A stretch of DNA of 64,000 bases. Source: a virus (taxonomy: Duplodnaviria; Heunggongvirae; Uroviricota; Caudoviricetes). Under the pieces are notes generated by a model. It searched no databases. It was not told the DNA's origin and saw nothing but the letters and a program-made list of their open reading frames with translations. The translations under genes were made by a program, and so were the position numbers. Within the stretch, counting starts at the first letter, position 1; each line of letters starts with the position of its first letter. The stretch is from the IMG/VR virus record IMGVR_UViG_3300031555_003801, positions 64,001 to 128,000 of that record. One strand, written 5' to 3'. Positions 1 through 64,000 of the stretch are shown here, one piece after another.

Positions 1-1
1 C

Positions 2-502
2 TTTGGAGTTTATTTCACTCCTGCGGAAAATCTTTGCTATACAGCTATGAAAAAGTTCAAAGCTAAATATGGTGAATTAAAAAATATTTCTGATAGAGAT
101 TACTTTACAAATAGTATGCATGTGCCGGTTTGGCATCAGATGAGTCCATTTGAAAAAATTGATATTGAAAGTGAATTGACAGGATATTCTTCTGCTGGAT
201 GCATTACTTATGTAGAACTTGATAGTAGCGTTCAAACAAATTTAAAGGCACTAGAACAAATTGTAAATTATGCTATGGATAAGGATATTCCTTATTTAGC
301 AATTAATATCCCTAATGATACTTGTCTTGATTGCGGATATACAGGAGAATTTAATGATTATTGTCCTATGTGTGCAAGCAAAAATATTCAGCAATTACGC
401 AGAGTTACTGGTTATTTAACTGGTGATTATAAAACTGCTTTTAATAATGGCAAACAAGCAGAGGTAGAAGATAGAGTAAAACATGTGGGGGTATTAGAAT
501 AA
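2..502 (+). CDS. nrdD: Anaerobic ribonucleoside-triphosphate reductase large subunit, C-terminal part (5' end outside window)
   Basis: The frame is open from base 2 (FGVYFTPAENLC). It carries the zinc ribbon CLDC..CPMC and the glycyl-radical motif RRVTGYL..FNNGKQAEV..RVKH. Confidence 0.95.
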   Translation, partial: FGVYFTPAENLCYTAMKKFKAKYGELKNISDRDYFTNSMHVPVWHQMSPFEKIDIESELTGYSSAGCITYVELDSSVQTNLKALEQIVNYAMDKDIPYLAINIPNDTCLDCGYTGEFNDYCPMCASKNIQQLRRVTGYLTGDYKTAFNNGKQAEVEDRVKHVGVLE

Positions 503-747
503 TGATGAAATATTATAAAACTCGTCCTTGTATTATTTAGGCTATGGAATGGACAGGAAATAATATTGGGGAAATTAAACGATATGGTGGCGATCAAATC
601 GATATTTCTTCTGGAATTCCAATTATTCATACTTTAGAAGGAGATATGACTGCTAGCATTGGAGATTTTATTATTCTTGGTTTACGAGGAGAATTTTATC
701 CTTGTAAACCAGATGTATTCCATAAAAAATATGAGGAGTGTATATAA
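502..747 (+). CDS. Conserved phage protein of the (K)KPVxIxA-WTG / TLEG-PCKPD-F type; TAG read as Gln at codon 13
   Basis: ATG overlaps the nrdD stop (TAATG). Reads MMKYYKTRPCII*AMEWTG...HTLEGDM..GDFII..GEFYPCKPDVF, with in-frame TAG at 538-540. Confidence 0.8.
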
Positions 748-750
748 TTT

Positions 751-1161
751 ATGTATTATTTAATTCAATTTACTTGGGGTTTACCTTTAAATATTATTGG
801 GTTTATTGTTTATATAATATTATCTAAAATTTGTAAATTTTGGAGTTATAAATATAGAAAAGCTTTTTATGTAGTAGTTCCTTGGAATTTTGGTGGAGTT
901 AGTTTAGGAATGTTTATTATCCATGGAGAAAAGAATTATGATTTAAGAGTTCACGAATATGGACATTCAATACAAAATTTAATGTGGGGATGGTTAATGC
1001 CAGTTGTTATTGCTATACCTTCAGCTATTAGATATTGGTATAGAAAGTTTTTAATTAAAATAGGAAAAACTTTAAAAACTTCATATTATGACATATGGTT
1101 TGAAAAACAAGCAACTGAATTAGGAACTAGAGCAAGCAAAAATGAATGGAGTTGGATATAA
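751..1161 (+). CDS. Small membrane protein with HExxH zinc-binding motif (putative metallopeptidase)
   Basis: Hydrophobic N-terminus, RVHEYGHSIQ motif, and a second hydrophobic segment. Confidence 0.6.
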   Translation: MYYLIQFTWGLPLNIIGFIVYIILSKICKFWSYKYRKAFYVVVPWNFGGVSLGMFIIHGEKNYDLRVHEYGHSIQNLMWGWLMPVVIAIPSAIRYWYRKFLIKIGKTLKTSYYDIWFEKQATELGTRASKNEWSWI

Positions 1162-1637
1162 TGCGTTACGCAGGAATTATTAAAAATGATTTAGCGGCAG
1201 CTCCTGGAGTATGTTTAACTTTCTTTACTTAGGGTTGTTCAAGACATTGTCCAGATTGCCATAATCCGCAAACTTGGGATTTTTGTGGGGGAAAAGAATT
1301 TACACAGGATGTATTAGATACTATTATTGATAATCTTTATGCTAATGGAATTAAAAGAACATTTTGTGTTATGGGAGGAGAACCGCTAGATCCAGAAAAT
1401 ATATTTTTAACTGATTTAGTTATATCAAATGTAAAGGAAGCTCTTCCCGATGTAGAAATATATCTTTGGACTGGATATAAATATGAAACATTACAACATC
1501 GTTCTGAAGCAAGATTAAAATCTATTTTAGATAAAGTAAATGTTTTAATAGATGGTGAATATATAAAAGAATTACGAGATATAACTCAACCAATGATTGG
1601 TTCTACTAATCAAAGAATTTTGACTTTAAATAGATAA
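1161..1637 (+). CDS. nrdG: Anaerobic ribonucleotide reductase activase (radical SAM); TAG read as Gln at codon 24
   Basis: Reads MRYAGIIKND..GVCLTFFT*GCSRHCPDCHNPQTWD (CxxxCxxC), then MGGEPL and VLIDGEY..GSTNQR. The TAG at 1230-1232 falls on the conserved Q of QGC. Confidence 0.95.
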
Positions 1638-1648: not shown

Positions 1649-1671
1649 AAAAATAAAAAAGAAGGTTAAAA

Positions 1672-2768: not shown

Positions 2769-3298
2769 TGGCAAAGTTTGAAAAAGTAAGTAAATATTCC
2801 AATAGTGAAATAAATATGCCGGTGCGAAAAACAGCACGTTCCGCAGGTTATGATTTTGAAGTAGCAGAAGATATTATAATTGAGCCTTATTCTCATTTAA
2901 AATTAATTATGGAAAATGCTACTCCATATCAACCTTATCCATTATCTGAAATTGCAAAAATGACAAAAGCAAAAAATACTAAACCAACTCTTGTTCCTAC
3001 TGGAATGAAATGTCAGTTAGCTGATGATGAATATTTAGAATTAAGTATTCGTAGCTCTGGACCATTAAAGCATTGGTTAATGTTAGCAAATAGTGTTGGT
3101 ATTATTGATGCTGATTATTACAATAATCCAGATAACGAAGGCCATATTTATTTCCAAGTTATTAATTTATCTCCTACCCCTATTCAGTTAAAGAAAGGCG
3201 ATATCATTGGTCAGGGTATTATTCATAAGTATATTACCACTGAAGATGATTGTGCAAATGGGGAGCGCAAAGGAGGCTTTGGGTCTACAAGTGAGTAA
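2768..3298 (+). CDS. dut: Trimeric dUTPase
   Basis: Five dUTPase motifs: SAGYDF, IRSSG, GIIDADYY, GQGI, RKGGFGST. Confidence 0.95.
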   Translation: MAKFEKVSKYSNSEINMPVRKTARSAGYDFEVAEDIIIEPYSHLKLIMENATPYQPYPLSEIAKMTKAKNTKPTLVPTGMKCQLADDEYLELSIRSSGPLKHWLMLANSVGIIDADYYNNPDNEGHIYFQVINLSPTPIQLKKGDIIGQGIIHKYITTEDDCANGERKGGFGSTSE

Positions 3299-3782
3299 TA
3301 TATTAGCACTCGACTAGAGCAGTAGAACAAGCGGTTATGCTATATTCAAAAATGAAGAATTATTTGATTATGGACATTTTACATTTGAAGATATAAACAT
3401 GGGTGTAAGATTACATAAAATTAAAAATAAAATAAAATCTTTGATTGATGAATATGATATAGATGAAGTAATTTTTGAAGATATATATATGGATGGGCAA
3501 CGCGTTAATAATGTACAAACTTTTAAAGTTTTAGCAGAGGTGTTCGGGGTAGTCTATGAACTGGTAACCGATTTGGGCTTGCCGAATACAGCAGTTTTAG
3601 CTGGAACCTGGAAGTCAACACTTAATATAAAAGGGACTGCTAGAGCCGAACAAAAACGCAATGCCCAGACATATGTATTAAATACATATAATAAAAAAGC
3701 CACACAAGATGAATGTGATGCAATTTGTATAGGAGCTCATTTAATAAAACAAAAGAACTCTTCATTTAATTGGACAGATTAA
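3291..3782 (+). CDS. RuvC-like Holliday junction resolvase; TAG read as Gln at codon 9
   Basis: GTG start after AGGAGG. Reads MSNILALD*SSRTSGYAIF, VIFEDIY, W(K)..L..KG..RAEQK, DECDAICIG. TAG at 3315-3317. Confidence 0.85.
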
Positions 3783-7987: not shown

Positions 7988-8029
7988 AAAAAATAGGGTT
8001 ATGTAATTTCTTACATAACCCTATTTTTT
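7988..8029. terminator. Bidirectional intrinsic terminator
   Basis: Inverted repeat AAAATAGGGTTATGTAA / TTACATAACCCTATTTT between converging genes. Confidence 0.9.
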
Positions 8030-8426: not shown

Positions 8427-11400
8427 TTATCTAATTCTAATCCAAATACGATTATTTACTTTTATTTGACTTTGTCCCCAAGTTTCATAATCTGGAATTT
8501 CAGAAACTGTACCAATAATACGATGAGGGTATTTACAAATTTCTTCTTCTGTCATTTTAGAAACTGTACCATTAGGACCTGCACAAACTGCATCACCTGC
8601 TTGATAGCTATTTCTATCTTCATAAGGATATGCAAGTACACGACCTGTTGCCGCAATTGGTGTTTGACACTCATCAGTTTCACCAATAGCAAATCCAAAA
8701 GTATCAGAAACTATTTCTGCTCCTGGCTGAAGTCTTTCAGTTGAAAGAACTAAATCCCCTTTACCAGTTTCAACAACTACTCTACCTGGCTCTATTTTTT
8801 CTTCTGTTTTTCTAAATTCAGCATAGTCATTCCATGCTGCTCCATAAAGAACTCCAGTAGAACCTTGGAAATATACTCCTGCAGTATTTGAAGAACCTGA
8901 AGTATTATAAGCACGATAAAGTGCTGAATTACCAGCTGATGTAAGAGAAGAACCTACAACATAGTATTTAGTAGCTGCAGTAGTATTATTTACATAAACA
9001 TTAGTAGCATTAGTAGCATTGGTAATAGATAAATTACTTAATTTAGTATCAATTTCTGTTTTAGTATATGCTCCAATAGCAGTAGGAGTAACATCTATTG
9101 TTTTAGCTGTAGAACCATTGAATGTAAATAAATTAGTTCCTTCAGTTGTACCGCTATTTAATTTAATAATTAAATTAGTATTAACTTTTTCTGCACTTGT
9201 TGCAGAACCTCCAACAGAAGATGAACCTGCATATGTTGTAGTATTAGGTAATTTAGCATTTAATTGAGTTTGAATATTAGAAGTAACTCCATCAATATAA
9301 TTTAATTCAGTAGTTGTTGCAGTAACTCCATCTAATTTATTTAATTCTGCTGCAGTGGCAGTAATTCCTAAATTAGTTAATACTCCTGTTGCAGTAGTAG
9401 CACCAGTACCACCATTAGCAATTGGTAAAGTTCCTGTTACACCTGGAGATACATTAACAGAGCCATTAAAACTAGCTGCTGTTGTACTTGCTAAATTAAC
9501 ATGAATAGTTCTTGCTGTTTCTAAAATAGTTGCTTTAGCAGCAACTCCACTAATACCAACATCTAATGTATCATTACAAGCATAGAGTCTTCCTGCTGAT
9601 AAATATACTGGTTTCGTAGCAGAACCAAGTGCAGCAGCACTACCAGTAACAACTCTATCACCTTTCCAGAATAAATTACCAGAACCTCCACCAATAGATA
9701 GACCATTTCTATAATTTTTTACTCCATAAGTAGTAGTATTTTTTTCCATGGATATAATAATAAATGTTCCATCATTCTAATCATGCGCAAAACCAGTATA
9801 AGGACTATTACTACTCATTGTTGCCCATTGTATATATGGTTGATTTTTTTGCGATGTCTAAGTATTAGATAATAAAAGATTGCCCTATAATGCTGCACCG
9901 CTTGAAGCGATTATCTATTTACTAAAAGTATTTGTACCACTAAAAGTCTAATTTACTTCTAAAGCAGCCATAGTATTAGCAACTGCTGTAATTACTCCGG
10001 CTTTTAAATAAGTAGGTTTTAAATCTCCACCTACTGTAGCAGTAGAAGCTGCTAAAGTTCCTAATGTCATGTACATTGGCTATGTTGCAGAACCTACTGA
10101 TGCATCTGAAGCAGTAACAGTTCCATTATTTACATAAACTGGATTAGTTTTTCCACCTATCGTTCTTTGTGCAGAAGGCGTAATAACTGCACCATCTATA
10201 TTAGTTTGCGCAACAGTCCAATTACTATTATTTGCAGTAGTACCATCTTTAATAGCAATAATTAAATCACCAATTTCACAAACTTGTCCTGCATAAGTTC
10301 CAGCAGTAATAACTCTATAAGTATCACCGGCACTATAAGTTGAAGGAAGAGTTGTTATAGTACCACCTGTTCCAATAGTACCTTTAAATACCATAGCATC
10401 ATTTGCTGCAAAACTTGCTGAAATCGCAGTAGCTACAGCTTTAGAAGTTGGAACAGTAGTATTATTTGTACTGCCTAAAGGAGACGTTGTTGTAAAACTA
10501 TAAGTAGCAAGTTGATTTAATTGAGTAGCAGTTGCTGTTAAACCAAAATTCTTTAAAGCATTAGCTGCTGTAGTTGCTCCAGTACCACCTTGCGCAATTG
10601 GTAAAGTACCAAAAACAGCCTAACCATTTGCTGAAGTAGCATAAAAAGCACCATTAGCAGTTGGAGTAGAACTAAAAGAATTACTATCTGCAACACTACT
10701 AAAACAAATAATAGCATTTTGAGTAATAGTAAAAGCTTTACCAGTTCCGCCAAGACTTAATGGTAAAACAGTATTAATTGTTGTTGCTGGACCATTAAAT
10801 TTAGTCGCTGTTACTTCTCCTGGAAAAGTGGCATCTCCTTTATAGTCATAACTATATAAATGACCTGTTTTCGCCATTGTAGAAGGATAATTCCAGTAAG
10901 TTTCACCAATACCAATAATATCTAATAAAGTTAAATTACTATTATAAGAAGAACTAACTCCTGTAATACCAAAAGTTAAACGAATAACACCAATATTTGA
11001 TGTTTGATTTGTACTACCTCCAAAAGGTATACCTCCGATAGGAATTGAGTTCCATCCAGACCATCCATTGATAGGATATGTTCCCACTGCTGTAAAAGTA
11101 GTTGGCGCTCCTTTAGTTGCTTTTTCAACTAAAACAGTACATCCAGAAGCTCCGTAAGTGGATATATTTAATAATAATTTTCTTAATCTAGTATAAACAC
11201 TCATATCAGTAGCAGTAAGCGTTACTCTTAATTTATCTTGTATAGTAATACCAGTAGTTTTTGCGCCAATGTAAAAAGTATTTCCAATACCACTAACTAA
11301 ATTAATTTTATCACCATCTGTAACGCCTGGATAAGTAGCATATGTTGAACCATTATCGGTTGAATATTCAATTAAAATACCTGCTGGTTTAGCTAAAGCA

Positions 11401-11888
11401 AATCTATTTGCACTATGAAGATTAGATATTGCAGCATCAACTGGAGATATACTTCCAGAAATATTTGTATTACTCCAATTAATAAAAGTATCTTCAATTC
11501 CTGTACATGCCTAAAATACGCCATCATTTAATCTAATTGGAACTTGAGAACCTCCTACATCTGCGGTTGAAGCTACTGGAACACCATTAGAAAAATAAAT
11601 TGGCTATGTTGCAGAGCCTTTTGTTAAAGAACCTAATTTATTTGCAGAAGTAGCATTATCAGCTAATTCTGCTTTATAAATACTTAATTCTTCTACCTAA
11701 GGAGAATAAATATCATTAGTCTAATAACCTCTCTATAATTTTGGATAATTATAATTTTTATTAATAAATAATTCCTAATGTTTAGGATAATTAGTTCCAG
11801 AATTAGTCCAAACATCTGTATCCTAAGAACCAAAAGTTCCAGTATATTCAGCAGGTATAATTCTGCTTATTATTTTAATATCACTCAT
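8427..11888 (-). CDS. Tail fibre/spike protein (1153 aa) with shaft repeats and a C-terminal peptidase-G2-type intramolecular chaperone; at least 14 TAG
   Basis: Track ORFs 8427, 10080 and 10620 share one frame; ATG at 11888 follows AAAGGAGG. Repeats GSATxPxY and LPIAxGGTGATTA are present, with WNDYAE at 8817-8834. Confidence 0.8.
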
Positions 11889-11914: not shown

Positions 11915-13894
11915 TTATACTGGACACATTGCAGCATTATGAACTACAATACCATTTGCAATATATGTATCATTTGTATCATTATCCATATTTGTTTCAT
12001 TATAATCAACTGTATCCAAATTATAAGTTATCATAGGTTCTTTCGCAATAAATCTTTCTATATCTATAATTGTTTTTAATCCAGAAGTAGTGACTACTTG
12101 ATCTCCAATGTATAAAGGAGGATAACCTTTATGACAGGTGATAGAATGAAAACCATCTTTAGTTAAAATTGGATGATATTCATTCATTACTAAACTAGTT
12201 CCATCTTCTATTGTAACTTTAGCAATATAAACAGTATGTTTTTTAATTATTAAATTTTTACATATTGCTTCATAAAATTCTTTTGTATCAATATTATAAG
12301 AAATAACTTTATCTCCAGATTTAAAATCTTCAATATTTTTTGTATTTCCTTCAAAATCATATTGAACCTATGTTCCTGCTTCAAAACAACATTCTTCTAT
12401 ATTAATAGTCCATTCACCACCATCAGCAATTAAAACATCGCTATCTCCATGAGAAGTAACCTATTTACTACTATTTACAATTGCTAATTTATTTCCAGTA
12501 GCAGCTGATAAAGTAAGTGTAGAACTTATAGTTGCGTTTGTCGTAACCGCAAGATTTGGAGTAGTTAATATTTTAGTTGAAGGATTATATTTTAAAGTTG
12601 AAGTTTTCTTTACTGTATTTGTTACAGAACTTGTTGCAGTGCTATAAGCTAAAAGAATTGGATATTCACCCGCTGTAGTAATTGCCGCAGCTTGTGTAAC
12701 TTTTGTATCAGAGTTAGAATCATAACTCCAGCTAATAAATACCCAATGAGTACCATTAAATTGATAGGTAATATGTCTATTTGCATAACCACCATAAGAA
12801 CTAGCACTTGTATATTCAGCATTGTTATACCAAATTGGATAAGCGCCAGTATTATTTACATTAAGAGTAGGAGAGGTAGCTGTATTTGTAGCTGTAAATT
12901 TTACAGTAATCATACTACCTTTAGTTAATTGCCAATTAGCATTTCCATCTAAAGATACTACTTTTGCTGCAGTTTCTGCATTAGTAGAGCAAGTACCATA
13001 GGCAATATTTGTTACATTTAATTTGGTTTTGTCTTCCGATGACATTAAACCATTTTCTGTGGTAGTAGCAGTTGCACCTATAAATTTTGTAGCAGTAACA
13101 GTTCCAGTTTGTATACTATTACCATTAAAATCAATAGTATAAGCATTTGAGCGTTTAGAATTAGTACCATTACCAATAATAAAAGCACTTGTTGTATCTG
13201 CTACATTATATTTACCTTGAACATGTTGAGCAGCACCATTGGCGATTGTACCCTAACCTTCTGCATGAGAATATGCTCCAATTGCACTATTAGCAGAATC
13301 ATTAAATATTTCTGCAAAATTACCAACTCCATGATTAGATTCTAATAAAACATAATTAGTTCCATCATAAATAAATGTATAAATTATATTTGCTCGTAAA
13401 ATTGGTAATTTAGTATTAAAATTAATACTCTTAGCACCAGAGCCATTAATATTTAAAGTAGGATTTGCTGCAGTATTAGTATTTAAAAATTTAATATGAA
13501 CTCTAGCTCCTGCTATTAATGTATATCCAGTAATAGTAGTTGTTTTTGCTGCAGTCCCTGCGGCAGTATTACATAAAGCATAGTGAACTACTGCATGAGA
13601 ACTTCCTTGTTGATTAACACCATCATTATTAATTTTTAAGTTAACAGTTTTATTTTCTGAACCAGTATATTCAATTAATTCATTGACTCCGTTCATTTTT
13701 AAAGTTAAATGATAAGGGGTTGGTGTAACAATTGAACGTACACTACCAATAGTATCACCAGTTCCAATAAATAATCTATTACTATTCTAATTGTTTTCTT
13801 CATAAGAAGTTAAATAAAAAGTTCCTTTAGTTCCTTTTAAATCTTCTAAAATCGTCGATGGAGAGCCTAATAAAAAATGTATATTATTAGCCAT
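11915..13894 (-). CDS. Tail fibre/adhesin protein (659 aa) with YadA-like head motif and C-terminal Hint domain; 4 TAG
   Basis: Track ORFs 11915, 12461 and 13253 share one frame. Two copies of Y..C.T.A.TAAK...KF..TNTA..PTLN; AYSHAEG*GTIA; CFEAGT...ANGIVVHN. Confidence 0.85.
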
Positions 13895-16890: not shown

Positions 16891-19800
16891 TTACTAAATA
16901 ATTTGTAAATTTGCGCCCTGGTTTTTAGTATCTAAACACTTCCAAATTTCTATTGGATTGCCAGCGTAGGTTACAATATCATAAATACTGCTATATAAAT
17001 CCGTATAAAAATCTATCGTAACATTTCTATTATCAGTGTCAATTCTAGGCCATTTTCCACCACCGGAAGAAGTAGTACGATTTAAATCTAATTTTGATTT
17101 ATTCTCTTCGCTACCAATAATAATTTTACTTCCTATCATCATATCGTAGTTATAAGCAATTGAATTATAGCTTAATGTAGCTACTTCAGAACCAATTAAA
17201 ATAGTAAATGGATGGGTTTTAGAATAAAAAGCATTTCTAAAAGCTAATTCTTCAATTAAATATAAATTTTTAGGAAGCTATATGGTTGTCATTGCTGATA
17301 ATGTCATTTCAAGAAAACTACCCATACCAATTTTTCTTATAGAATCAATAAAATCAAAATATACTAAAGTTTTACAAGATTGCTTATCATTATCTGTGCT
17401 AGAAGAAAAAGTCCAAGCTTTAATTTCTCTTAATTGACTTCCTTCTTCGAAATAAAGATGAGTTATTTCTTGATTATAAAAAGCTTCCATTGCTACAACT
17501 GGTAAATTATTATATTTTGCTGGAAGGGCAACTTTACCTTTTAATACTACTCCATCAACTGGTCTAATAGAATATCCAGATAAATTATACTAAGTATCTC
17601 CACCATAATTAGGAAGATCAATATAATTATATTCTGTAAATGTAAAATATTTACTATCAATAACATTCTTACGAACATCAGTTATTTCATAAACATTATA
17701 AAAAGTATAATTTTTAACAGCCAAGAAATCTGTTAAATCAACCATCATACTTCCATCTGATTCACTAGAATATCCAATAAATTTATAAACTTTATCATCA
17801 GCTAAATCATCAGAAGGTTTATAAGGTAAATATGTTGTTGGTTCATATAATGGTTTTCCAGATTCTATTAATAATTCAAAATCATAATCATTTTCATCCG
17901 CAGGATTATTATTATAATTTTTAAAACGAACCCAATATTTATGAATTTCAAAAATAGCATAAAAAGTATAAACAGTTTTTGAATTACTAAAAGTTAATTC
18001 TGCGAATTCTTCTTCTGTTAATACATCTTCTTTAGTACCATTTTTATCTGTAGACCATCCAACAAAATCATAATGAAGTTTTTGTGGATTTTCTTTAGTA
18101 GAAATAGATGGATGAGTAGTTGTTTCAGGATCATATTTATGTACATCCCATTCTATTTCTTGACCATTATCTTGAACTTGAATAAATTTAGCAGTATAAG
18201 CAGGTTCAACATTAGCTACAAAAATATTTAAATCTGGGAAATAAATATCTTTATATGTATTTTTTAAAGCATATTCTGAAATAGGATTTGAAGAACTATT
18301 ATTAACAAATATATCTCCAGACATATATGGAATTGTATTTCCACCATCACTTTTTTCATTTGTGCTTCTAAAATAATTTTCCGTACTATTATAAGAAACA
18401 ATAAATTTATCAAGTAAACTTAAATCTGTAATAACATTTGCATTATCATTCAATAAATTTGCAGTATATTCATAGACTTTTCCATTTAAAGTATCTGTTA
18501 CCCAATCTACACTTGGAGTATAAGCTTCAAATGTATAATTATCTGTTAATTTATAATAAACTGCAGAAACAGAAATTTCTTCTCCGTATTCAACCTATCT
18601 ATAAGGACTCCATTGAACATTTTCTAGATTAAGTTTTAAAGTTTTATCATATTCATTACTTAAATTAGTATTAGCTTGCATTTTTTCTTTAATCTGAACA
18701 ATTTTATCTACTAATTTATAAGAATCATAATAAAGCTTTTTACCCCCAATAATATTCATTGAATCTAATTTACTTACTGTTTCATTAGTAATTGTTGTTA
18801 TATCAGTTAATCCTTGAATATATAATCCAGTAGGGAAATTTCCTTTTTCATCTACTACTGGTTTATTAGTTAATAAACCATTTAATTCAACTGGTTCAGT
18901 TAAATTGAAGTAAGAAATAGTATTAGGTAAATATAATGTTTCTAATTGAACACCATCTGCAAAAGTTAAACCAGTTAAATTAGTTCCAAGAGCACGACAA
19001 GTTTTTAATTTTTCAGAACCAGAAATATCCATTTCAGCATTTAAACCAGCTAAATTAGTTAATACAATTGTTTCTAACAATGGTTTTGCTTGCGGATTTT
19101 CTTTACCATCACTCTTTTTAGCCCCCGCATCTAATTCAAAGTTACTATTATTTAATCTTATATTTTTATAACCAGGAGTTTCATTTCCAAGAATTAAATC
19201 TTTTAATCTAATTGCAGAATTAATTCTAAGTTCATCATAATATTTTCTACTTAAATCTCCAAAACTTGAAACGTATTCAAGACCACCAATATACATTAAC
19301 TATTGTGAGAACATTGGAGTATTTAAAACTGAATTCTAAACACTTTCATAAGGTTCAATAACAACTGGATTTTCTCCATCAAAAGGTACTGGTGTTGTTG
19401 GAGTATTTTGGTCATAATAAACACTTACATATTGTTTTAAGTAAGGTTTAATTGTTACAGATGCTTCTGAATCAAGAGGAGAAATACCCCATTCTTGAAT
19501 TGTACCACCATTATCTATAAAAGATTGATAATTCTATCTTAATTGCTCTAAAGCTTCATCTGTCATTTCGTCTGGTTTTACATAATCAGGATTAATGTAA
19601 TCAGGAGCTTCATTAATAAAAGTATCGGAAGTAACAATTGCATCATTTGCATTATAACGAGATTTAAATTGCATTTGAACAGCATTTACAGAATAAGCTC
19701 CTGCCAGCCATTGGCTATCAAGATAATTAAATCTATTTCTTAAAAATAGTTCTCTCTGTAATTCTCTTGTTCCTTGTAAACAATAGAAGAAAGTTTTTGT

Positions 19801-35000: not shown

Positions 35001-35129
35001 TCTTCCTTCAATCTATTCAATAGGAAAGCCATTGAAATTAAGAGCAATAATTTTAGCATAAACTTCTTTATGCTAATACTAATCCAACTCTTTTAAAAAA
35101 TCTTTATCTAATAAAGGATTTTTTTCCAT
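32097..35129 (-). CDS. Baseplate hub / tail-tip protein (1010 aa; DUF5048-like N-terminus); many TAG
   Basis: AAAAGGAGG RBS. Reads MEKNPLLDKDFLKELD*Y*HKEVYAKI..GRITGGSINIDGTSVVRRTCNLTL..SISGQDKMCMLNGTLGG. In frame with track ORFs 32526 and 34113. Confidence 0.75.
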
Positions 35130-42100: not shown

Positions 42101-43134
42101 ATATCGTATCCTAAACATATATAAGCATCTTTTGTAAATAAATTAGGAAGTAAAGGATTCCCAAAGTCATCATTATGTGGAACTTGTTTTTCATCTTTAT
42201 CAATAAAACTTTGTGATTCTTGATAAAAATATAATTCCATTTTTTGAATTTCTTTTATAGTAGATATATCAAATACTTTTTCTTGTTGATAATAACTTTC
42301 AAAATTATATGGATTACCATACATATCTTGTGAAGAAGATAAAAATAATTCATATTGTGCATAACTTAACTCAATTCTTTGAGATTGAAGAATAGACAAA
42401 ATATCAGATATTTTATAATTATATCCTTCTTCATAATAATCATCCCAAGGAATAGTAGTAATAGCACATGATATTTCAATATAATTTCTTATATCAGAAT
42501 CAAAATATTCTTTACCTTCATCAATTAATTCTTCAAGTTTTTTAATAGCTAAATCATAATTATTTTCTTCTGTTTTAACTACTTCTTCTTTACAATGAAG
42601 AATTAATTTATATCCATAATTACCACTTATACATTTAAAACTATCAAGCCAAGAGCGAAACTATCCTTGAAGTCCAAGTCTTGTAAAACCTGCTATATCT
42701 TGATTACTTGCAGTAAAATCTTTTTCCCATAATAAAACTTGCGTTTCTGCGGGATCATTTGCGCGCAAATATCCTTCTGTATTTTTATCATTTATTAAAT
42801 TTGTTGATACATCTACGATTGTATCAAACGGAGTTGTAAATAAAAATGGTGAAGTATTATTAGTAACCTATTTACCAATAATTATTTTTTGATTATTAAA
42901 ATCACCATTTGGCACTGTTACATAAACAGCATCATTTTCTTTATAATCTGTTGAAGCAGAGTATGCATAAAACTTTGTTGAACCATCAGTTACTTTATAC
43001 TATCCATCTTTTGCTTTTGTATCATCTATAATGATACAATTTATTGTTTTATCAAAACTAATTCCTTCAAGTTTTTTAGTAACTATTTCATCAACAGCCT
43101 AACAAAGTATATCAGCATAATCTTTCTATGCCAT
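39106..43134 (-). CDS. Large tail tip / central spike-like protein (1342 aa); codon 3 is TAG; many TAG
   Basis: AAAGGAGG RBS. Reads MA*KDYADILC*AVDEIV..SFDKTI.CII..Y.VTDG..F.AY..VYVTVPNGDF..K.IIGK; C-terminal NTFSGVMLGDW..FIGKAGRGRI. In frame with track ORFs 40108, 40501, 41428 and 42079. Confidence 0.7.
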
Positions 43135-51654: not shown

Positions 51655-51683
51655 AGTATATCATATTTTTTCTTTCTTGTCAA
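51655..51683 (-). promoter_or_regulatory. sigmaA-type promoter with extended -10
   Basis: TTGACA, 17-nt spacer ending TGA, TATACT; upstream of the ATG at 51626. Confidence 0.85.
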
Positions 51684-53259
51684 AAAAAACTTCTTTATTA
51701 ATCTAAACAGAAAAATTCTTTGAATTAATATCTGCTAACATAGATGCAATTCGTTTATAACCTGTTTTAAAATTTTTTGGTCCTTCAACATAATTATTTT
51801 TCCATTCTGGATTCATTAAATCATTTATTCCATCTATTTTAATATTTAATAATTCTAAATTATTTTCTATTTTATTTAATAAATCATTTATAAAATAAAT
51901 TTTATATCCACCTTTATTATTGCCATGATAATTTACAACGAATACTTCAGCCATTTCCTCTCTAGAGAAATCCTAACCCTTTTTTTTACTCCAAGTTCCC
52001 CCTGCTAAAGCGTGTAAAGCAATTGTTTGTTTTAAAGTTTCATGAGCCTAATCTAATAAAGAACTTGAAGGATGTTTATCTTTATGATCAGCAGTTACAT
52101 TCAAATAATGATTAGCAAAAACAGGATAATCCTAAATATAACTTAATATATCTGCTCCTTTTAAAACTGAAAAATCAGCATTTGTAATATCATAATTTTT
52201 TATAGAAGCAGGAATAATATCATTTTCATCGAAAGTAAAATTTGCATCTATTTTATTTTCTGTATACACTAATTTTAAGTTTGCATTATTATAAGTCTTT
52301 TTTAAATATTCTTTATTATTGCCACCAATATATCTTCTTTTATCCATCTATTTCGCAGAACGCTCTACTTTTTTTCTAGAGTAATTTACACCACCTGCAA
52401 TATCACTAACAATATCTTCAATATTTTTAGTTAAATCATTTACTTCATTTGCAATCATATAGTTTGCTACTGCAAATGTGATTTTAGGAATTTCTTCGCC
52501 TATAACACCAAGCATATGAGAGCTTGTATAATTTTTTAGATAAGTAGATGTTTCATTTAATAATTCAATAAAGCTTTGATGTTTATCTGTTTTTAAATCA
52601 AATTTACCTTTTTCTTTTTTATCTTCTAATTCTTTATAAGCCTAATTTAATTCTTCAACTTTTTGAATAAATTCTCTTTCTGTAGCACCTTTTTTAATAT
52701 TTGCTGCAACTGCATTTCTTACCTATTCAATTACTTTAAGTCTTTGCTAAATAGCTTCCCACTTAGTATAATCTTTAAAAGCATCTTTTTCTTCTACTCT
52801 TTTAATACCCAATCTTGTTCGTGCTCTTTTAACTTCTTCATAAGATAGATTTCCTTCTGGGGTTGAAAGAGAACCTGTTTTAACCATATTCATAATTGTA
52901 CTTAATGTTTCTTTCATAAAAACATTTAAATCTTCATAATTAATATCTTTAACCCCTTTACTTTGAAGATCTGTCGTATTTTGAAATATATTTATTACAG
53001 CTTCTTGTAAAATTTCAAGTTCTTTTTCTGTCCAATCTTTATTTTTAACAGTTGTTCCTTCTTTTGCAAAAAATAAATTTAATGTATCTTCAAGCTATTG
53101 AATTTGTTCTCTATTTCTTTTTTTAGGATAAAGTCTTTTTAAAAGTTTTTTCTGTGCTTTAAAAACCTAAGATGCATTTACCTAGGCTGGAGTATTATAA
53201 GAAATTCCATACTATTCAAAATTATCATAATTATAATGAATATAATCACCTATTAGCAT
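51661..53259 (-). CDS. Hypothetical tail-region protein (532 aa); several TAG
   Basis: AAAGGAGG RBS. Reads MLIGDYIHYNYDNFE*YGI and is in frame with track ORFs 51703 and 52132; first non-TAG stop is TGA at 51661. Confidence 0.7.
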
Positions 53260-53333: not shown

Positions 53334-54278
53334 TTAATCAAAATACTTTTCTTGTTCATCCCAGTCTTCACCAGTCTGAGCAGCAGTATGAGTTCTCTTG
53401 ATATCCATAGATCCAGCAGTATCAATAATTTGAATAGCTGCTAATACTTTCTTAGTCTTATCAAATCTAGTATAATCTGGGAATGCATCCATTGTAAATG
53501 TAAATGTGGATGGATCTCCAGAAGAAGCCATTGTAAATGTAAAGTTAGACTGAATCTTACAGTTAGGAATTATAAATTCTGCTGGCATATCAACACCATT
53601 AGTATCTCTGAATAAAGTAGATGCTTCAAGATAATAGTTACCACCAAACTTATCTGGAGTAATTTCAATTTGTTGAGCACCGGATTTCTTTTCAGTATAA
53701 TAGTCAACTAATACTACGCAACCATCATAGAAGTATTTTAAATCATCTGTAGGTTTTAAAGTAATCTTATTGCCTTCTACTGTTTGTGGAATATAAGGTT
53801 CAGTTACAACTTCACCATTTTCCATTAACATTACATAAATATAATCTTCACCAGCCTGATTAAATGGCGCTTCATCAAGAGTAATAGTTACTCCAGAAAC
53901 AGAATAATTTACTTCACCATAAGTACCATTTTCAGCAACTTCAACTTTATCAGTTTGTTCAATCTGATGAACTTTGATAGTTCTTTCTTCGCTTGCTTCA
54001 ATTAATCCTGCACCAGAAAGAATCATAAATCCAGCAGGAGAGATTAAAGCATCTTCCATTGTAAAAGTAACAGTTCTTTCACCTTCCCAAGCAATTAAAC
54101 GAGAGTTACCTCTACCACCCTGAGCATATACAGTAGTAGCTGCACCTTCAAGAGTGGAAGTCTTTAAAGTATCGAAATAACAAACTGGTTCATTTTTATA
54201 GAAGATTTTATTACCAACTCTTTGTGCTGCTTTCGCCTTTAACACAACATCGCATATTTCACGAACACCAAATTTCAT
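53334..54278 (-). CDS. Major tail (tube) protein; no TAG
   Basis: Reads MKFGVREICDV..YFDTLKTS..GGRGN.RLI.W.GE..TF..EDAL..FTMASSGDPSTFTFTMDAF. Position upstream of the TMP and a strong terminator fit this call. Confidence 0.75.
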   Translation of the reverse strand: MKFGVREICDVVLKAKAAQRVGNKIFYKNEPVCYFDTLKTSTLEGAATTVYAQGGRGNSRLIAWEGERTVTFTMEDALISPAGFMILSGAGLIEASEERTIKVHQIEQTDKVEVAENGTYGEVNYSVSGVTITLDEAPFNQAGEDYIYVMLMENGEVVTEPYIPQTVEGNKITLKPTDDLKYFYDGCVVLVDYYTEKKSGAQQIEITPDKFGGNYYLEASTLFRDTNGVDMPAEFIIPNCKIQSNFTFTMASSGDPSTFTFTMDAFPDYTRFDKTKKVLAAIQIIDTAGSMDIKRTHTAAQTGEDWDEQEKYFD

Positions 54279-57607: not shown

Positions 57608-58213
57608 TTACTTACTTACTACGTTATATTTAGGAAGAGGTTTAGCCATTTCTTCAACAGTCATGTCCTGATAAGAAACATCTGTTCTACGTCTTCCATT
57701 TGTTGATTGGGCCTTAGGAGCTTCTTGCGCCTGAGCCGCAGGTGCTGTATCTTCTTCTGGAGCTAAATCTGCCATCTTATTCTTATAAGCAACGCTAGCA
57801 TCAAATCCAGTTCTTTCCTTTAATGCTTCAATCTTTCTTGTGTCAGTTAAAGGAAGTTCTACAGCATATAATTTAATTAAATCTATAACACCAACAGGAG
57901 CAAATTGTAAACAGTCTAAATAAGCATCAAAATCGCCATTCTTTAATAAATCGATAATCTGTTCTTCACTCATATGATATTCTACTTCTGTTGGAATACT
58001 TAATTCTTCAATAGCTCTGTTTTCACTAATCTGTAAAAAGCTAGCCATAAGTTCTCTTCCACCTGGCTGCCAACTTAACTTTTCAAGTTCTTCAAAAGGA
58101 ACTACTTTTGTTTCTCCTGGCGCAAATTCTCTACGAATTCCTAATTCTGGAATTGAATAAATTGCTTGGCTAGCACTTCTATTTTTTACTTTTAATGTTC
58201 TTACATCACTCAT
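57608..58213 (-). CDS. Conserved phage protein downstream of the major capsid gene; no TAG
   Basis: Complete ORF with AAAAGGAG RBS (VKNRS..YSIPE..RREF.PGE.K). Confidence 0.75.
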   Translation of the reverse strand: MSDVRTLKVKNRSASQAIYSIPELGIRREFAPGETKVVPFEELEKLSWQPGGRELMASFLQISENRAIEELSIPTEVEYHMSEEQIIDLLKNGDFDAYLDCLQFAPVGVIDLIKLYAVELPLTDTRKIEALKERTGFDASVAYKNKMADLAPEEDTAPAAQAQEAPKAQSTNGRRRTDVSYQDMTVEEMAKPLPKYNVVSK

Positions 58214-58307: not shown

Positions 58308-59408
58308 TTATTTAGATAACTGACCAGCATAGTTTACAACCTTGCCAGTAATTCCATCAAGGTTCCAAGTAGCCATTTGACCCATTAAAGCAGTGTCTAC
58401 ATAGCAGCAGATGTTATTTGCTAACATAGCAACTACGCCAACTTTCTTATAAACATGCATTTCTCTACTTCTGTCATAACCGGTATATTCGTCAACGATA
58501 GTAGCACCTTCGAAAGCAATCTTAACTGGTTTGTTATCAGCACCAGTAGGAATAATCCAAGCATAACCAGGATCGATTACCTTAGTAGTGTTAGTTTCAT
58601 CTTCGAATCCTTGTTCTAAGATTACAACTTTATGTCCCTTATAGTCAGCAAGACGTCCAGTTCTCCATAATTCATCCTTCATGGATTCTGTATATCTCCA
58701 TGCTTCCTTAGGAATCATGTTTACAGCAAATTCATAAGTACAATAAATAGTAGGAACGCCATAAGCAGAAGCAATTACTAATAATCTATCAAATGATTTT
58801 TCATCAAAACCATTAGCAGCTACTCTATTTGCAGGAGGTAATTGATTTACAGATGCCTTTAATGCGTGAGCAACTTCCTTGCTTACTAATTCATCCATAC
58901 CTTCCATTACAATATTAGTAACTTCAGCAAAATCTACTCTACCATCTAAGAATTCTTCGAAACCGATAGAAGCAGCACCACCAATAGCACTAGTTCTAAC
59001 TTCGAAAGATTCTTCGTTCTTACTTAATTTGAATACTTCATAAATACCAGCTAATCCAACACGAGTGATGAACTGCTTAGCTCTCTTATTGGAACCTAAT
59101 TTTCTTCTGAAAATTGGCTTGTCTCCCTGAGCAAAAACCTTAGTTTCTGCAAACTGGTCATATCTTTCAGAAACCTTTTTAGGGAATACTTCATCAATTG
59201 TTTCTTCAATAATTGAGAAGATTGTGTTCTTATTTTCTCTATATAAAGCATAAGTGCTTGCTAATTCATTAAATTCATTACGAAGAGTTTCATTTAATGC
59301 TTCGTAAGATAAGTTTTCACCATTATAGCTATAAGCAACAGGAGCAGAAGGATTAGCTTTTGCAACTTGCTTAGCTAAAGCAACTAAATTTTGTCTATCT
59401 AAAGCCAT
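58308..59408 (-). CDS. Major capsid protein (366 aa); no TAG
   Basis: Start MALDRQ follows AAAGGAG. Size, position after the protease/scaffold, motif IGFEEFLDGRVDF and a strong downstream terminator fit this call. Confidence 0.8.
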   Translation of the reverse strand: MALDRQNLVALAKQVAKANPSAPVAYSYNGENLSYEALNETLRNEFNELASTYALYRENKNTIFSIIEETIDEVFPKKVSERYDQFAETKVFAQGDKPIFRRKLGSNKRAKQFITRVGLAGIYEVFKLSKNEESFEVRTSAIGGAASIGFEEFLDGRVDFAEVTNIVMEGMDELVSKEVAHALKASVNQLPPANRVAANGFDEKSFDRLLVIASAYGVPTIYCTYEFAVNMIPKEAWRYTESMKDELWRTGRLADYKGHKVVILEQGFEDETNTTKVIDPGYAWIIPTGADNKPVKIAFEGATIVDEYTGYDRSREMHVYKKVGVVAMLANNICCYVDTALMGQMATWNLDGITGKVVNYAGQLSK

Positions 59409-59424
59409 TTTCTTTTCTCCTTTC

Positions 59425-60156
59425 TTATGCAATTCTCATAATCTTAACGCCTTTTTGATGATCAGGCATTGTATAAACTTTAACTACTTGCCACTTCATG
59501 TCGCCTTCGCCTACTTCTAAAATACCAGTTGCACCAGGAGTAAGGATTTGACCTACTTCTAATGTCTCAGCATTAATAGTATTAGTAGTCATAATATCGC
59601 CAACATTAGTCTTGAATACTCTAGGAACCATAGTTGTTCCTTCTGGCATCATTTGTTCTTTTGTTAAGGATTCGATATGGAAAGGATCTTCATTATAATA
59701 AGGTTCGTACATATCTGGAGCAGCTGTTACATCATCAAATGCATAAGTGTTTTCTCCAAGAGTAATGGAATCATTACCATCAGCATCAACACCGTTATAG
59801 TAACGAGACTGCTTATCCCAATTAGTATCAGCAGCAACTGGGCTATAAACACGAGCTTGATAGTTATCCTTTAACATAGCAAATTCGCAATCCCATTGAT
59901 GTTCTCTGTATAATTTAATTTCGTTGTATACAAGCATCCATTCGCCAGCGCCTTCAAAATTAACAACGCCATTAGCGTAGTCATATTTAACAAATTGACC
60001 CTGTTCTAATACTTCGATATCCTTAGCCGCAGGTAACTGAGCATAAATTTGACCAGTCTTTCTAGCGGATAAATGATTAGGTTCAACCTGACCAAAACCG
60101 AATTCAACATAAGATGCTTGACTCTTAATATGATTCTTTAAGAAATCAGTAAACAT
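59425..60156 (-). CDS. Capsid-associated structural protein (decoration/cement-like); no TAG
   Basis: Contains FGQVEPNHLS..GQIYAQLPA..PRV..TNVGDI.TTNT and lies between the scaffold and MCP genes. Confidence 0.55.
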   Translation of the reverse strand: MFTDFLKNHIKSQASYVEFGFGQVEPNHLSARKTGQIYAQLPAAKDIEVLEQGQFVKYDYANGVVNFEGAGEWMLVYNEIKLYREHQWDCEFAMLKDNYQARVYSPVAADTNWDKQSRYYNGVDADGNDSITLGENTYAFDDVTAAPDMYEPYYNEDPFHIESLTKEQMMPEGTTMVPRVFKTNVGDIMTTNTINAETLEVGQILTPGATGILEVGEGDMKWQVVKVYTMPDHQKGVKIMRIA

Positions 60157-60183: not shown

Positions 60184-61707
60184 TCACATATTTTTCGCAG
60201 TTTTAAGTGCGGCCTTAACCCAAGCTGGAACAGATTCATCTTGTGTATCTTCTAAATTGAAAGTTGTTGCTCCAGGCATATCGTCTTCTTCTTCTAAGTT
60301 AAAGCTTACTTTGTTGCGCACGCAAATAATAGAAAGTTTTGCTTCAATATCACCTAAAGAATAAGTATCAATATTAGCAATTACATCTGCTTTATCTTCA
60401 TCAGTTAGCATATAGAAACTAGCAATCATTTCTTCTTTTTCTTTTCTTTCAGCCTGTTTCTTAAATTCAGCTAAAGGTTGAATTTCTTCTTCTAAAGCAT
60501 TTTTTTCTTCTACTAAAGCGTTATATTTTTGTTCTAATTCAGAATATTGTGTCATTAAATCTTGATATTCTGGAATTTCATCTAAGCAATATTCCTTCTT
60601 ATCTTCTTCTTTCTTGCAAGTACACTCATCTTTTGGCTTACCGCATTCAGGACACTTTTCTTCTTCCTTATTGTCTTCAGCAAATTCTGTTTCTTTGCCT
60701 TCTAAATTATCATCAATTTGTTGATTATCAACTTTTTCTAAATTGTCCACAAATTCTTGAATTTTTTCTAAAGAAAATTGAGGTTCTTCTTTTTCAGCAT
60801 AATCAACTAATTTTTCTAATTTCGCAGGAATAAATCCTTCTTCTTCAGACATAGAGAAGTTTAAAGAATAATATTCTTCGCCGTTCTGTAGAACTGCAAA
60901 TTTCTGTTCTTCATTTTCACAAAATTCTACAATGCGATATTCTGTGTCTGAATAAGTTTCTTTTAAATAGCTGTATAGAGCTGTCCATAGAGCATCGCCA
61001 ATTTCAACAGCGTATCTATTAAACATTTTTGCTCCTCCTTCTTTTAAGAATTCTGTTAGTTCTTGCATCATGGAGAATAATTGTTGTTTGAAATCTTCCT
61101 TGAATGAGAACTAAACGTTTGTAATTTGAGAACCTTCAAAACAAGGTTCGAACTCTTCCCCTAAAATACATAATTTAGAGATAATAGCCTCATTTATAAT
61201 AAAAAATTCCGGATATCCATTTTCATCTTTTGACCATTCAGCCTTAATTGTTTCTTCATCTAATTCCATAGATTGATTATTTCCGGAAGTTATTATTCTT
61301 TGACATTCTGGATATTGTCCTGTCCAAAGATAACCTTCAGTCATTAAATATTCATGTTCATTTTTTCCATCATCTAAAAATTTCTAAAACCAAACCTTAG
61401 CTCCTAAATCAACAAAACCATAAGGTCTAGTAGTATCTTCAATATTGAATTCACCATTAGAAATTGTAATCTGTCTATTATGTTCTTCAAAATCTTTTGC
61501 GTTCTTATTAAAGAATCCAACAATTGGACTTCCAGGTAATGAATTAGCCATTTCACGCGCAACATCTTTTGTAATAATACTGCGGTTACGATTTGGTTCA
61601 TCACCAACATAACAAACTTTAATCTAGCATTTAGAAATCAATGGATTAAGAGGCTTAACATTTATAATTTCAATTGGGCTATCCAATTTAATACTCATAT
61701 GTTTCAT
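60184..61707 (-). CDS. Prohead protease with fused acidic scaffold domain (507 aa); 3 TAG
   Basis: GGGGAGG RBS. Reads ISKC*IKVCYVG..NRN.S.ITK..A..SLPGSPIVG..LMTEGYLWT..QSMEL..LCILG..EPCFEG, with a Glu-rich coiled-coil C-terminus. TAG at 61624, 61384 and 61111. Confidence 0.8.
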
Positions 61708-61723
61708 TCAATAATCCTCCCCA

Positions 61724-63337
61724 TTAAGACATTGACTCTTTATTCTTTATTGTTTTTTCACTTTTCTAACTATCTTCCTTTTCAGGTCTACCACCCTTAT
61801 CTCCAGAAGAAGCACCTGTTTTACTTTGACTTTTACTTGTGCTTGTCTAATCTTTTTTACCCAAAACATCTTCTCCATTTATAGTATTACTTGATAATGG
61901 AGGAATCATAATTTCGCTTAAATGTAAGAAATCATTTTCAAAAGTAATAGAATTCAAAATAAAACTTTGTGAATGTCCAAGAGCAATCTAAGGTAGCATT
62001 TTTGAATATCCAATTTGAGTTTGCTCTTTATATAATTTTGCTAATTCTTTATAATTATATTGCGTTGTTTCTAACATATATAATTTAAAATTATATTTTT
62101 TTCTATTTGTATTCTTTGATTGAATATGTCTATCAAAGAACATTGAAAATTGTAATAATAGATTGCGTCCTGATGATTCATCATTTAAAATAGATTTTTC
62201 AAGAGATAAATTTCCATCCGTATTAAATAAATTCTATGAAACACCAAGTGAATTATATACAGTTCGTTCTACTTTAGCTAAATCATCAGTAGTTGTAGTT
62301 GTATTTTTATCAGATAAATCAATCGACTCTACATCGGCAAATGTAGTTAAAATATCTACCCCAACCGCACGTTTTAACATTTGAACCGCATTATTATGAA
62401 TATCTCTTGCTTCATCAATATCAAAAATTAAATCGCCATTCTTATCCATTGGAAGTTTTTGAATTAAAATCTTTAATAACTTCTACATTTGTTTTCTGCG
62501 GTCTAAATCTTGGGCCGCATCTAAATCAATGATAGAAGGAATTGCAGTAATGAATTGCGGCACATCGCTTCCATTAAAATTAAATTTCACAGAATTTTTA
62601 GGATCTAATAAATACCAACTACCACTATCTCCCTAAAAATCTGGTTCTAATTTTCTCTTTTGGTATAAAATATATCCCTTCTTAAATTCATCTGGGAATA
62701 AATTTAATACTTTCATACGATAATTAACATCTCTAAAAGTATCAAAAAATTTCATATTAAATTCAATTGCCGGCATGCCTTGAACAGAGTATCTTGAACG
62801 GCAATATTCAACAGGAAGTTGTTGTAAAATAATACCTTCTGTAGAAGGAACTACATAACCATAATAACAACCATTCTTTATTACTTCAAGAGCAATATCT
62901 CCGCAAATCTTTTTAAGATAAGAATTATCTAAATAATTTAATACTTTACAAAAATCTGTTAATACTTTTTCTTCTTTTACTTTATCATCATAAATCTCAG
63001 GAACTACATACCAATCATATCTATATAAAAAAGCAAAATAATTACATACTCTTTCATAAATACCACTTGTCTGATAATAAAAATTTGATATAGCGCGCAA
63101 TGTTGGAATATCTTTTTCCATCAAAGCTCTTAACACTTCTTTTTTACTTCCAAATGGGTGTCTTAAACAATCCTATCTAGAAGAATTTAAGGAGCCTAAC
63201 TCTAAAACTGCATCGTCTAAAACTTTAGGCCCCACCTTAATCTTTTTATAATCAGAAACTGTGGAATAATCTCGATATCCATTCATATCGAAACCTTTGG
63301 CATGAATTTGCTCATTACGAGATAATTCTTTTTCCAA
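61724..63337 (-). CDS. Portal protein (537 aa); TTG start; several TAG
   Basis: AGGAGG RBS. Track ORFs 62633 and 62234 are in frame. Reads LRAIS..FY..SGIY.R.C.Y..LYRYDW..LKILIQKLP..GVDILTTFADVE..GVS*NLFN..GGRP..KSEKTI.NKESM. Confidence 0.8.
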
Positions 63338-63351
63338 AATTCCACCTCCTC

Positions 63352-63708
63352 TTAATATCCTGCTTTTTGCATTATATAATCGTAAGAAATAAGATTTTCT
63401 TCATTATATGGAATTTCAATTAATCTAAAATCATGCAAAGCACAAAATCTTCTCTTTTTGTTATCATTGTGCTACTATTGATAAAGACCTCGTTTACCAC
63501 CAAATTTAGAACTAGCTTCATAATGCTATCTTCCTTGATATTCAATAATAAAATCAATATTACCATCATCATCAAAAACAACAAAATCAAAGCGAAGAGG
63601 TCTACCATTTTCACTTCTTAAATCTGGAAAAATATATTCCATCTAAAATCGTAATCCAGCTTCTGTTAAAATTTCTTCAATTTTAATTTCACCTCTACTG
63701 GCTCTCAC
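63352..63708 (-). CDS. Vsr/DUF2726-like PD-(D/E)xK endonuclease; 4 TAG; absent from ORF track
   Basis: GTG start after AGGAGG. Reads MRASRGEIKIEEIL..LRFDF..IEYQGR*HY..NDNKKRRFC..LIEIPY. Confidence 0.8.
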
Positions 63709-64000
63709 AGTTTTCCTCCTCTCTAATTCTTTCTCTAATATTGGTTGAAGATAAATCGTGTTTCCTTGTATTATAAATAATATTTATATTTAAATCTTTA
63801 CAAAGCTATTTACCAGTAAAATCACGATTAATATAATCAGCACCAACAAATCTAACATCTATAGGTAAACATTTTAATATTAATTCTAAATCTTTTTCCC
63901 CCATTAAAGGAAAAATTTCATCTACTGCTCTGTGAGTTCTTAATTGTAAATAACGTTCTAATAAAGATTCAATAGGCTTATTTTTAATTAATGGACGATC
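63689..64000 (-). CDS. Cytidylyltransferase (TagD/glycerol-3-phosphate CTase-like), C-terminal part; 5' end outside window; 2 TAG
   Basis: Reads DRPLIKNKPIESLLERYLQL..AVDEI.P..EKDL..DVRFVGADY..DFTGK*LC..IIYN.R.HDLSSTNIRERI. Confidence 0.75.

Follow-up and report, generated by a model that had tools for sequence, protein, structure and literature searches.

Late genes of a large SPbeta-like gut siphovirus use TAG as a sense codon, with alignments supporting glutamine as the encoded residue

Reassignment of the amber codon TAG to glutamine is a well-described habit of gut phages. Borges et al. reported it in the Lak, crAss-like, Jade, Sapphire, Agate, Garnet, Amethyst and Topaz phages, together with a bias towards late genes, early genes that conform to the standard code, phage-encoded suppressor tRNAs, release factor 2 (RF2) in some clades, and clades of mixed code (10.1101/2021.08.26.457843). 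A second described group, the proposed Phassvirus, comprises TAG-recoded siphoviruses with a predicted Clostridia host whose members share 80-86% nucleotide identity; Phass-1 itself carries many tRNAs, including Sup-CTA, and no release factor was reported for it (PMC10607447). Here we analyze a 64-kb stretch of Caudoviricetes DNA (hereafter the window), which corresponds to bases 18701-82700 of a 142,835-nt IMG/VR viral contig (G000) that is linear, has a GC content of 29% and is ~82% complete by CheckV estimate. An original prediction, made from the letters of the window alone, held that it belongs to a Clostridia-type siphovirus in which TAG is read as glutamine genome-wide, and it recognized, correctly, that amber recoding is already known in several gut phage clades. 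We find that TAG is a sense codon in the late genes of the window, that comparison with related viruses supports glutamine as the encoded residue, and that recoding is concentrated in the late and virion modules and is not genome-wide. In concept this adds little to what has been described; the small additions are a lineage-specific, diverged RF2 and a strongly conserved exemption of the capsid and tube genes from recoding.

The phage resembles those of Borges et al. in the concentration of TAG in structural and lysis genes, in its standard-compatible early genes, in the occurrence of tRNA(CUA) among its relatives, and in the interleaving of recoded and standard genomes within one clade; a portal tree of the phage family contains at least 4 changes of code state. 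Its host is predicted to be a Firmicute and its genome falls into the 150-200 kb size class of Jade, Sapphire and Agate. RF2 in some TAG-recoded lineages is a further shared feature; within the phage family RF2 is confined to this phage and its sister lineage. Its nearest named relative is Phass-1 (OQ749652.1), whose portal is 39.5% identical over 86% of the query. Both are large siphoviruses with a giant tape measure protein (TMP), TAG-to-Gln reading, recoded NrdG and holin genes, and TAG-free capsid and tube genes, whereas they differ in genome class (about 180-200 kb here versus 133-136 kb) and in the RF2 gene present here. Judged by sequence identity, the phage falls outside Phassvirus, well below genus-level relatedness to Phass-1. 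Its structural module is like that of Bacillus phage SPbeta, as identical proteins from other assemblies carry precomputed Pfam matches to families built on the SPbeta proteins YomU (YomU_Tube), YonB, YomW, YomV and YonD. The portal shows 23-30% homology to SPbeta and SPbeta-like siphoviruses of Bacillota (Enterococcus EF1/VRE9 and the Lactococcus 949 group), and all 88 GenBank phage matches are Bacillota phages or unassigned gut phages. The phage is a large SPbeta-like siphovirus on the basis of its PhageMin_Tail-type TMP, its SPbeta-type tube and capsid families, and its nearest cultured relatives, whose families we take to be siphoviruses. Cultured SPbeta-like relatives other than Enterococcus phage EF1 are not known to depart from the standard code. 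For EF1 itself, no recoding was found (PMC10607447).

Reading TAG as sense restores long open frames across the window. In a greedy set of non-overlapping open reading frames (ORFs), coverage of the 64 kb rises from 58.0% under table 11 to 96.0% with TAG recoded, which is the gain in coding density that the original prediction had proposed as a check; recoding TGA yields 61.6%, and recoding TAA yields 82.3% with many more, shorter ORFs. The 2224-aa protein and the 2572-aa TMP, both claimed to be open when TAG is read as Gln, were recovered in full (Table 1). The former contains 10 TAG codons that divide it into 11 pieces and the latter 49 that divide it into 50, with 8 pieces of at least 80 aa in each case, such that the earlier count of eight fragments for the first protein stands at this threshold and that of six for the TMP does not. 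In the standard-code relatives G006-G008 each giant protein is encoded by one unbroken table-11 ORF (2475-3221 aa), and alignment to these relatives covers 2116 of the 2224 positions in the first protein and 2032 of the 2572 in the TMP. In-frame TAG codons are present in 34 of the 47 genes in our window gene set (238 in total), close to the ~34 of 49 genes claimed previously. Genes end in TAA (42 of 47) or TGA (5 of 47) and never in TAG, again as had been reported; because TAG terminates 21 of 141 ORFs in standard-code relatives, this absence is unexpected (0.85^47, about 5e-4). The nucleotide at position +4 after in-frame TAG is like that after CAG (C in 15-20%), unlike that after true stops, where T or A follows 35 of 41 times and C does not occur. 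At a 60-aa threshold, table 11 leaves 3 genes without any visible fragment and reduces 14 to a longest fragment of less than half their length; the claim that at least eight genes are invisible under the standard code thus holds at a threshold of ~80 aa only.

The residue at TAG was read from alignments with related viruses. The portal match set contained 227 related viral loci, of which 80 were kept and assigned to code classes by local coding-density gain (49 TAG-recoded, 13 standard and 18 intermediate); phage proteins with X at each TAG were aligned to these loci, and the codon opposite each TAG was recorded. At 41 TAG positions the 13 standard-code loci carry CAA or CAG in 266 of 446 cells (60%), and in the control, the phage's own CAA and CAG codons face Gln in 55% of cells; E, K, D and R make up the secondary spectrum in both cases. 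Gln is the plurality residue at 25 of the 41 sites and occupies 18 of the 20 columns that are invariant in at least 8 relatives. The tabulation was repeated for the tail module against three standard-code genomes of 98-100% completeness, each contributing 46 kb; at 117 further TAG positions in these more divergent proteins Gln was again the top residue, with 23% of cells as compared to 29% in the own-Gln control. Applied to every recoded relative, the procedure gave TAG columns that are 48-83% Gln in standard-code relatives. The TAG of NrdG (aa 29) aligns with a glutamine of the catalytic motif, the Q of FFQGC in the pyruvate formate-lyase activating enzyme 3c8f, a solved glycyl-radical activase, and all five motifs in which the original prediction had seen TAG at a glutamine were found: xGC in NrdG, LDxS in the RuvC-like protein, NxTY in the gene at 8028-8414 (minus strand), GRxH in the 118-aa protein, and GKx in the cytidylyltransferase-like protein. 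Collectively, these comparisons support the assignment of TAG to Gln (translation table 15), and the tabulation over standard-code relatives, the TAG-specific gain in coverage and the phage RF2 described below all favor what had been proposed. The possibility that TAG arises preferentially at CAG-conserved columns was rejected, as the CAG share is 0.39 at TAG columns, not above the 0.50 seen at CAA columns.

The distribution of TAG is modular. In 5-kb bins of the parent contig, recoding lifts coverage from 22-55% to 96-100% over most of 45-75 kb, and the two codes give nearly equal values in the bins at 1-20 kb and 90-130 kb. On the minus strand, the late block (23-88 kb) contains 248 TAG codons in 41 genes, or 1.19 per 100 aa, distributed evenly over the length of the ORFs. 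The early blocks of the plus strand contain 21 in 82 ORFs (0.14 per 100 aa); each of these falls within the initial 20% or the final 30% of the longest ORF, and the central half is free of them. Six early ORFs would stop at TAG under table 11, each with a TAA or TGA 1-39 codons later. Because early TAGs sit only near ORF ends, the products of the early genes are essentially identical whichever code applies, a pattern previously described as 'dual-coded' or 'low-amber' (10.1101/2021.08.26.457843; 10.64898/2026.08.21.746148). The label 'genome-wide' in the original prediction therefore fails, both for the early modules and for four virion genes that are free of TAG.

These four genes of the late block encode the tail tube protein, the major capsid protein, and the 201-aa and 243-aa proteins that neighbor the capsid gene (Table 1). 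Together they would be expected to contain ~13.5 TAG codons (P about 1e-6), they use CAG freely, and TAG density reaches 4 per 100 aa in adjoining genes. It is a conserved exemption, as the same four genes have 0.02-0.09 TAG per 100 codons in 35-45 recoded relatives (0.02 for the tube in 35 relatives and 0.09 for the capsid in 42), versus 0.6-3.2 in neighboring genes. The Phass-1 homologues, capsid and tube included, are 23-53% identical and also TAG-free, and a capsid gene without TAG has likewise been described in a crAss-like preprint (10.64898/2026.08.21.746148). An AlphaFold model of the capsid protein (predicted TM-score, pTM, 0.73) has 321 PDB matches at E<=0.001, and the 50 matches listed are all capsids and encapsulin-type shells at a probability of 1.00, with modest TM-scores (0.3-0.6); on the strength of this model we assign the product as a predicted HK97-fold major capsid protein. 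The model of the 201-aa protein is confident for residues 1-150, and its fold search returned no PDB match at E<=0.001. The avoidance of TAG likely results from selection on the most abundant proteins, for which suppression would be too inefficient: if it has to compete with release factor 1 (RF1) of the host, it would not suffice for proteins whose copy number runs into the hundreds, and the capsid, the tube and their two neighbors would avoid TAG. A more elaborate proposal, which we think unlikely, is an actively maintained two-tier code switch in which the TAG-free shell genes are expressed at full rate whether or not suppression operates, expression of the remaining virion, tail and lysis-side genes depends on the suppressor, and a diverged RF2 acquired from Clostridia tunes the RF1/RF2 balance; if true, TAG density would act as a quantitative dial on protein dosage, beyond an on/off timer.

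A release factor gene is located 6 kb beyond the right end of the window (G000:C1:88028-89092, plus strand, equivalent to L081:865-1929). It is a TAG-free, single 354-aa ORF that matches PF00472 (6e-34) and contains the RF2-specific SPF motif as well as the GGQ motif, sequence features that identify it as an RF2-type factor predicted to read UAA and UGA. The gene lies directly behind TTGACA-17 nt-TATAAT, a perfect sigma-70-type consensus promoter sequence. The best 80 bacterial RF2 matches are 46-60% identical and all come from Clostridia, mostly Oscillospiraceae and Ruminococcus. Because these 80 nearest bacterial genes are all clostridial and a Clostridia host is predicted for the Phass-1 group (PMC10607447), the host is probably a gut or rumen member of the Clostridia, and the siphovirus with a Clostridia link that had been proposed is consistent with the TMP, the SPbeta-type families and the RF2 neighbors. 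Within the phage family RF2 is present only here and in the sister genome G011, the two proteins being 52% identical overall. Both share the atypical GGQ context GGQYQNTTE, and GGQH[IV]NKT is found in 63 of the 80 nearest bacterial loci. Loss of the prfB +1 frameshift from the phage gene was considered as a further distinction and discarded, as the CTTTGA motif occurs in just 1 of these 80 loci and offers no contrast.

Taken as a whole, we consider it very likely that this is a siphovirus, probably of Clostridia, whose late genes are decoded by code 15, with the probable aid of a CUA suppressor and RF2, and whose shell genes are kept free of TAG. Infection most likely would start under the host's standard code, because early gene bodies are TAG-free and the TAG-free RF2 gene sits behind a consensus promoter. 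A phage tRNA(CUA) would then let ribosomes read through the in-frame TAGs of the window, and RF2 would keep termination at UAA and UGA efficient. Several observations weigh against this model. ARAGORN and Rfam identified no tRNA on the 142.8-kb record, the window included, so that the suppressor of this phage is a predicted one. RF2 is absent from four other recoded relatives, as well as from four standard-code relatives and the partial genome G005; since recoded relatives do without it, RF2 is accessory and not required for recoding. Lastly, the CUA tRNAs of relatives belong to at least 4 unrelated sequence types, none of them clearly tRNA-Gln-like overall, and because of this we infer charging with Gln only from the protein alignments. 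Of the genes that the original prediction recommended looking for in the full genome, the phage RF2 was found, and neither a CUA tRNA nor glutaminyl-tRNA synthetase (GlnRS) was found on 142.8 kb. The claim that no suppressor tRNA lies in the window was borne out by ARAGORN, Rfam gave no match over 142.7 kb, and GlnRS (PF00749) and YcaO (PF02624) are absent from the record.

The missing tRNA is what would be expected if the phage had no suppressor of its own, with either a host that reads UAG as Gln or near-cognate read-through by tRNA-Gln aided by a shift in the RF2/RF1 ratio. Consistent with this reading, tRNA(CUA) was not found in G012, a recoded relative that is 91% complete, and some published recoded phages lack suppressor genes (PMC10607447). 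We nevertheless regard it as improbable. The record is incomplete, a 188,133-nt assembly with an identical tube protein exists, and the complete sister genome G011 contains both RF2 and a 72-nt tRNA(CUA); moreover, close relatives stop at TAG in 15% of their ORFs, which implies that their hosts use the standard code. Complete or near-complete relatives span 178-201 kb and carry 8-38 tRNAs (four have terminal repeats), and tRNA(CUA) is present in 5 of the 6 recoded relatives with a completeness of 90% or more (G001-G004 and G011). G001-G004, which are long, recoded and rated 100% complete, each have tRNA(CUA) and lack tRNA-Gln(CUG); among the standard-code relatives G006-G010, none has tRNA(CUA) and three have both Gln(UUG) and Gln(CUG). 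Synteny with G011 places the expected tRNA block at ~142-144 kb in contig coordinates, and the contig stops at 142,835. The tRNA(CUA) of this phage would thus probably lie in that block, immediately beyond the end of the contig. A 52-nt exact probe taken from the contig's left end had no match among viral or metagenome contigs, and an exact-protein look-up with the TTG-start capsid ORF also returned none.

A second alternative accepts TAG as a sense codon but assigns it another residue, namely Lys or pyrrolysine, Glu, Ser, Trp, Tyr or Leu. The relatives' CUA tRNAs receive the label 'Pyl' from ARAGORN, and their bodies are not Gln-like, being nearest to Asn or Trp (~73%) or, in G004, 90 nt in length and equipped with a long variable arm. 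Against this, the su+7 suppressor of E. coli combines a tRNA-Trp body with the anticodon CUA and accepts Gln. The column statistics, too, argue strongly against this alternative and make it very improbable: with substitution profiles learned from the same alignments, the log-likelihood is -753 for Q, -1368 for K and -1429 for E, such that Gln leads the next-best residue by 615 units, and the high Gln share at TAG columns extends to every recoded relative, the G004 sub-clade included. Pyrrolysine decoding in particular would place UAG rarely, at Lys-like or Pyl-specific positions and in methylamine methyltransferases; here TAG makes up 1.2% of late codons, it occurs in all kinds of virion genes and at Gln columns, and Lys fares 615 units worse, none of which conforms to that pattern. 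An attempt to deduce the suppressor's amino acid from tRNA similarity was abandoned, as the diversity of types and their ~73% similarity to Asn or Trp gave nothing firm. That the TAGs are real stops, marking pseudogenes, genuinely split genes, or sequencing and assembly artefacts, would account for the many short ORFs returned by table-11 callers, but it can be dismissed as next to impossible, since frames are interrupted by TAG only and never by TAA or TGA, the fused frames match intact ORFs of relatives along their full length, 35% of recoded-relative cells keep TAG at the same column, 23 contigs drawn from several samples share an identical tube protein, and the TAGs are spread uniformly in essential genes (portal, TMP and NrdG).

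Several tRNA genes of the relatives are unusual in their own right. The tRNA(CUA) of G004 (L148:1284-1373, minus strand) is a 90-nt molecule with a class-II long extra arm, in which CUUUGAA lies between complementary bases and corresponds to a Gln(UUG)-type anticodon loop; TAG columns in the G004 sub-clade are 70-79% Gln. G007, a relative with standard-code behavior, has a tRNA with the ochre-type anticodon UUA (L155:3974-4046, plus strand). Phage tRNA genes with inserts in or near the anticodon loop, seen as 117-194-nt matches, are present in G001, G002, G003, G006, G007 and G008; an example is L169:5863-6010 (minus strand), and ARAGORN models a tRNA-Thr(UGU) with a 73-nt intron.

For annotation, the consequences of the code are substantial. 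Table 11 mis-annotates ~40% of the window and shortens 14 genes, among them the portal, the TMP and all large tail proteins, by over half, and any functional or taxonomic reading of the contig needs code 15 for the late genes. Existing pipelines do detect the recoding, because ENA records already call the full-length 2572-aa TMP for this phage. The clade of 227 related loci, in which recoded, intermediate and standard lineages are interleaved, is suited to the study of how Clostridia phages acquire and lose amber reassignment, and it could show why the most abundant virion proteins stay outside recoding. With TAG read as Gln, the plus strand of the window encodes the C-terminus of NrdD, NrdG, dUTPase and a RuvC-like resolvase, and the minus strand a long virion block comprising the portal, head-module proteins, the tube, the TMP and seven further proteins of 630-2224 aa (Table 1).

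Table 1. Features of the window annotated with TAG read as Gln (window coordinates; E-values follow the family names).
Feature	Coordinates	Strand	Evidence and TAG content
NrdG-type activating enzyme, 163 aa	1146..1637	+	Pfam Fer4_12 3e-33; one TAG within the cluster motif xGC...C..C, at codon 29 (about 1230-1232)
RuvC-like resolvase, 191 aa as longest ORF	3207..3782	+	Pfam RuvC 6e-8; one TAG in LDxS near the N-terminus
1153-aa tail-region protein, no family assigned	8427..11888	-	14 TAG
659-aa tail-region protein, C-terminal pretoxin-HINT domain	11915..13894	-	Pfam PT-HINT 8.5e-7, residues 519-654; 4 TAG
2224-aa protein	16891..23565	-	10 TAG; one unbroken table-11 ORF in standard-code relatives
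1566-aa tail-region protein	27023..31723	-	15 TAG
1010-aa tail-region protein	32097..35129	-	17 TAG
1135-aa tail-region protein	35129..38536	-	19 TAG
1342-aa tail-region protein	39106..43134	-	24 TAG
Tape measure protein (TMP), 2572 aa	43253..50971	-	Pfam PhageMin_Tail 1.9e-28; 49 TAG
532-aa protein	51661..53259	-	12 TAG
Tail tube protein, YomU_Tube type	53334..54278	-	phrog_2729 4.5e-54; PF27173 precomputed; TAG-free
YomV-like protein, 242 aa	54311..55039	-	10 TAG (4.1 per 100 aa)
YomW-like virion protein, 196 aa	55039..55629	-	5 TAG
201-aa protein adjoining the capsid gene, no role assigned	57608..58213	-	TAG-free
Major capsid protein, predicted HK97 fold (YonB type)	58308..59432	-	AlphaFold model and PDB fold matches; TAG-free
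243-aa protein upstream of the capsid gene, putatively scaffold-like by position	59425..60156	-	TAG-free
507-aa head-module protein, YonD_N type	60184..61707	-	phrog_3313; 3 TAG
Portal protein, 537 aa	61724..63337	-	phrog_2739 1.7e-83; 7 TAG
118-aa protein, putative nuclease (label of the original prediction)	63352..63708	-	GRxH motif; 4 TAG
Cytidylyltransferase-like gene, C-terminal part, runs off the window	63689..64000	-	PF01467 precomputed on the 188-kb contig; 2 TAG

A phmmer search against the PDB gave no significant match for the RuvC-like protein, the capsid, the tube or two neighboring proteins. Outside the window, ORF coverage at G000:C1:100000-110000 is low under both codes (0.6-0.7), and small TAG-rich minus-strand ORFs lie there beside TAG-free plus-strand ORFs, with no Rfam family detected in this region. 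Between the two converging gene blocks of the window, positions 7280-7987 (plus strand) encode a TAG-free 235-aa protein with a weak match to response-regulator receivers (E 5e-4). The pretoxin-HINT domain that ends the 659-aa tail-region protein is unusual in a virion gene block.

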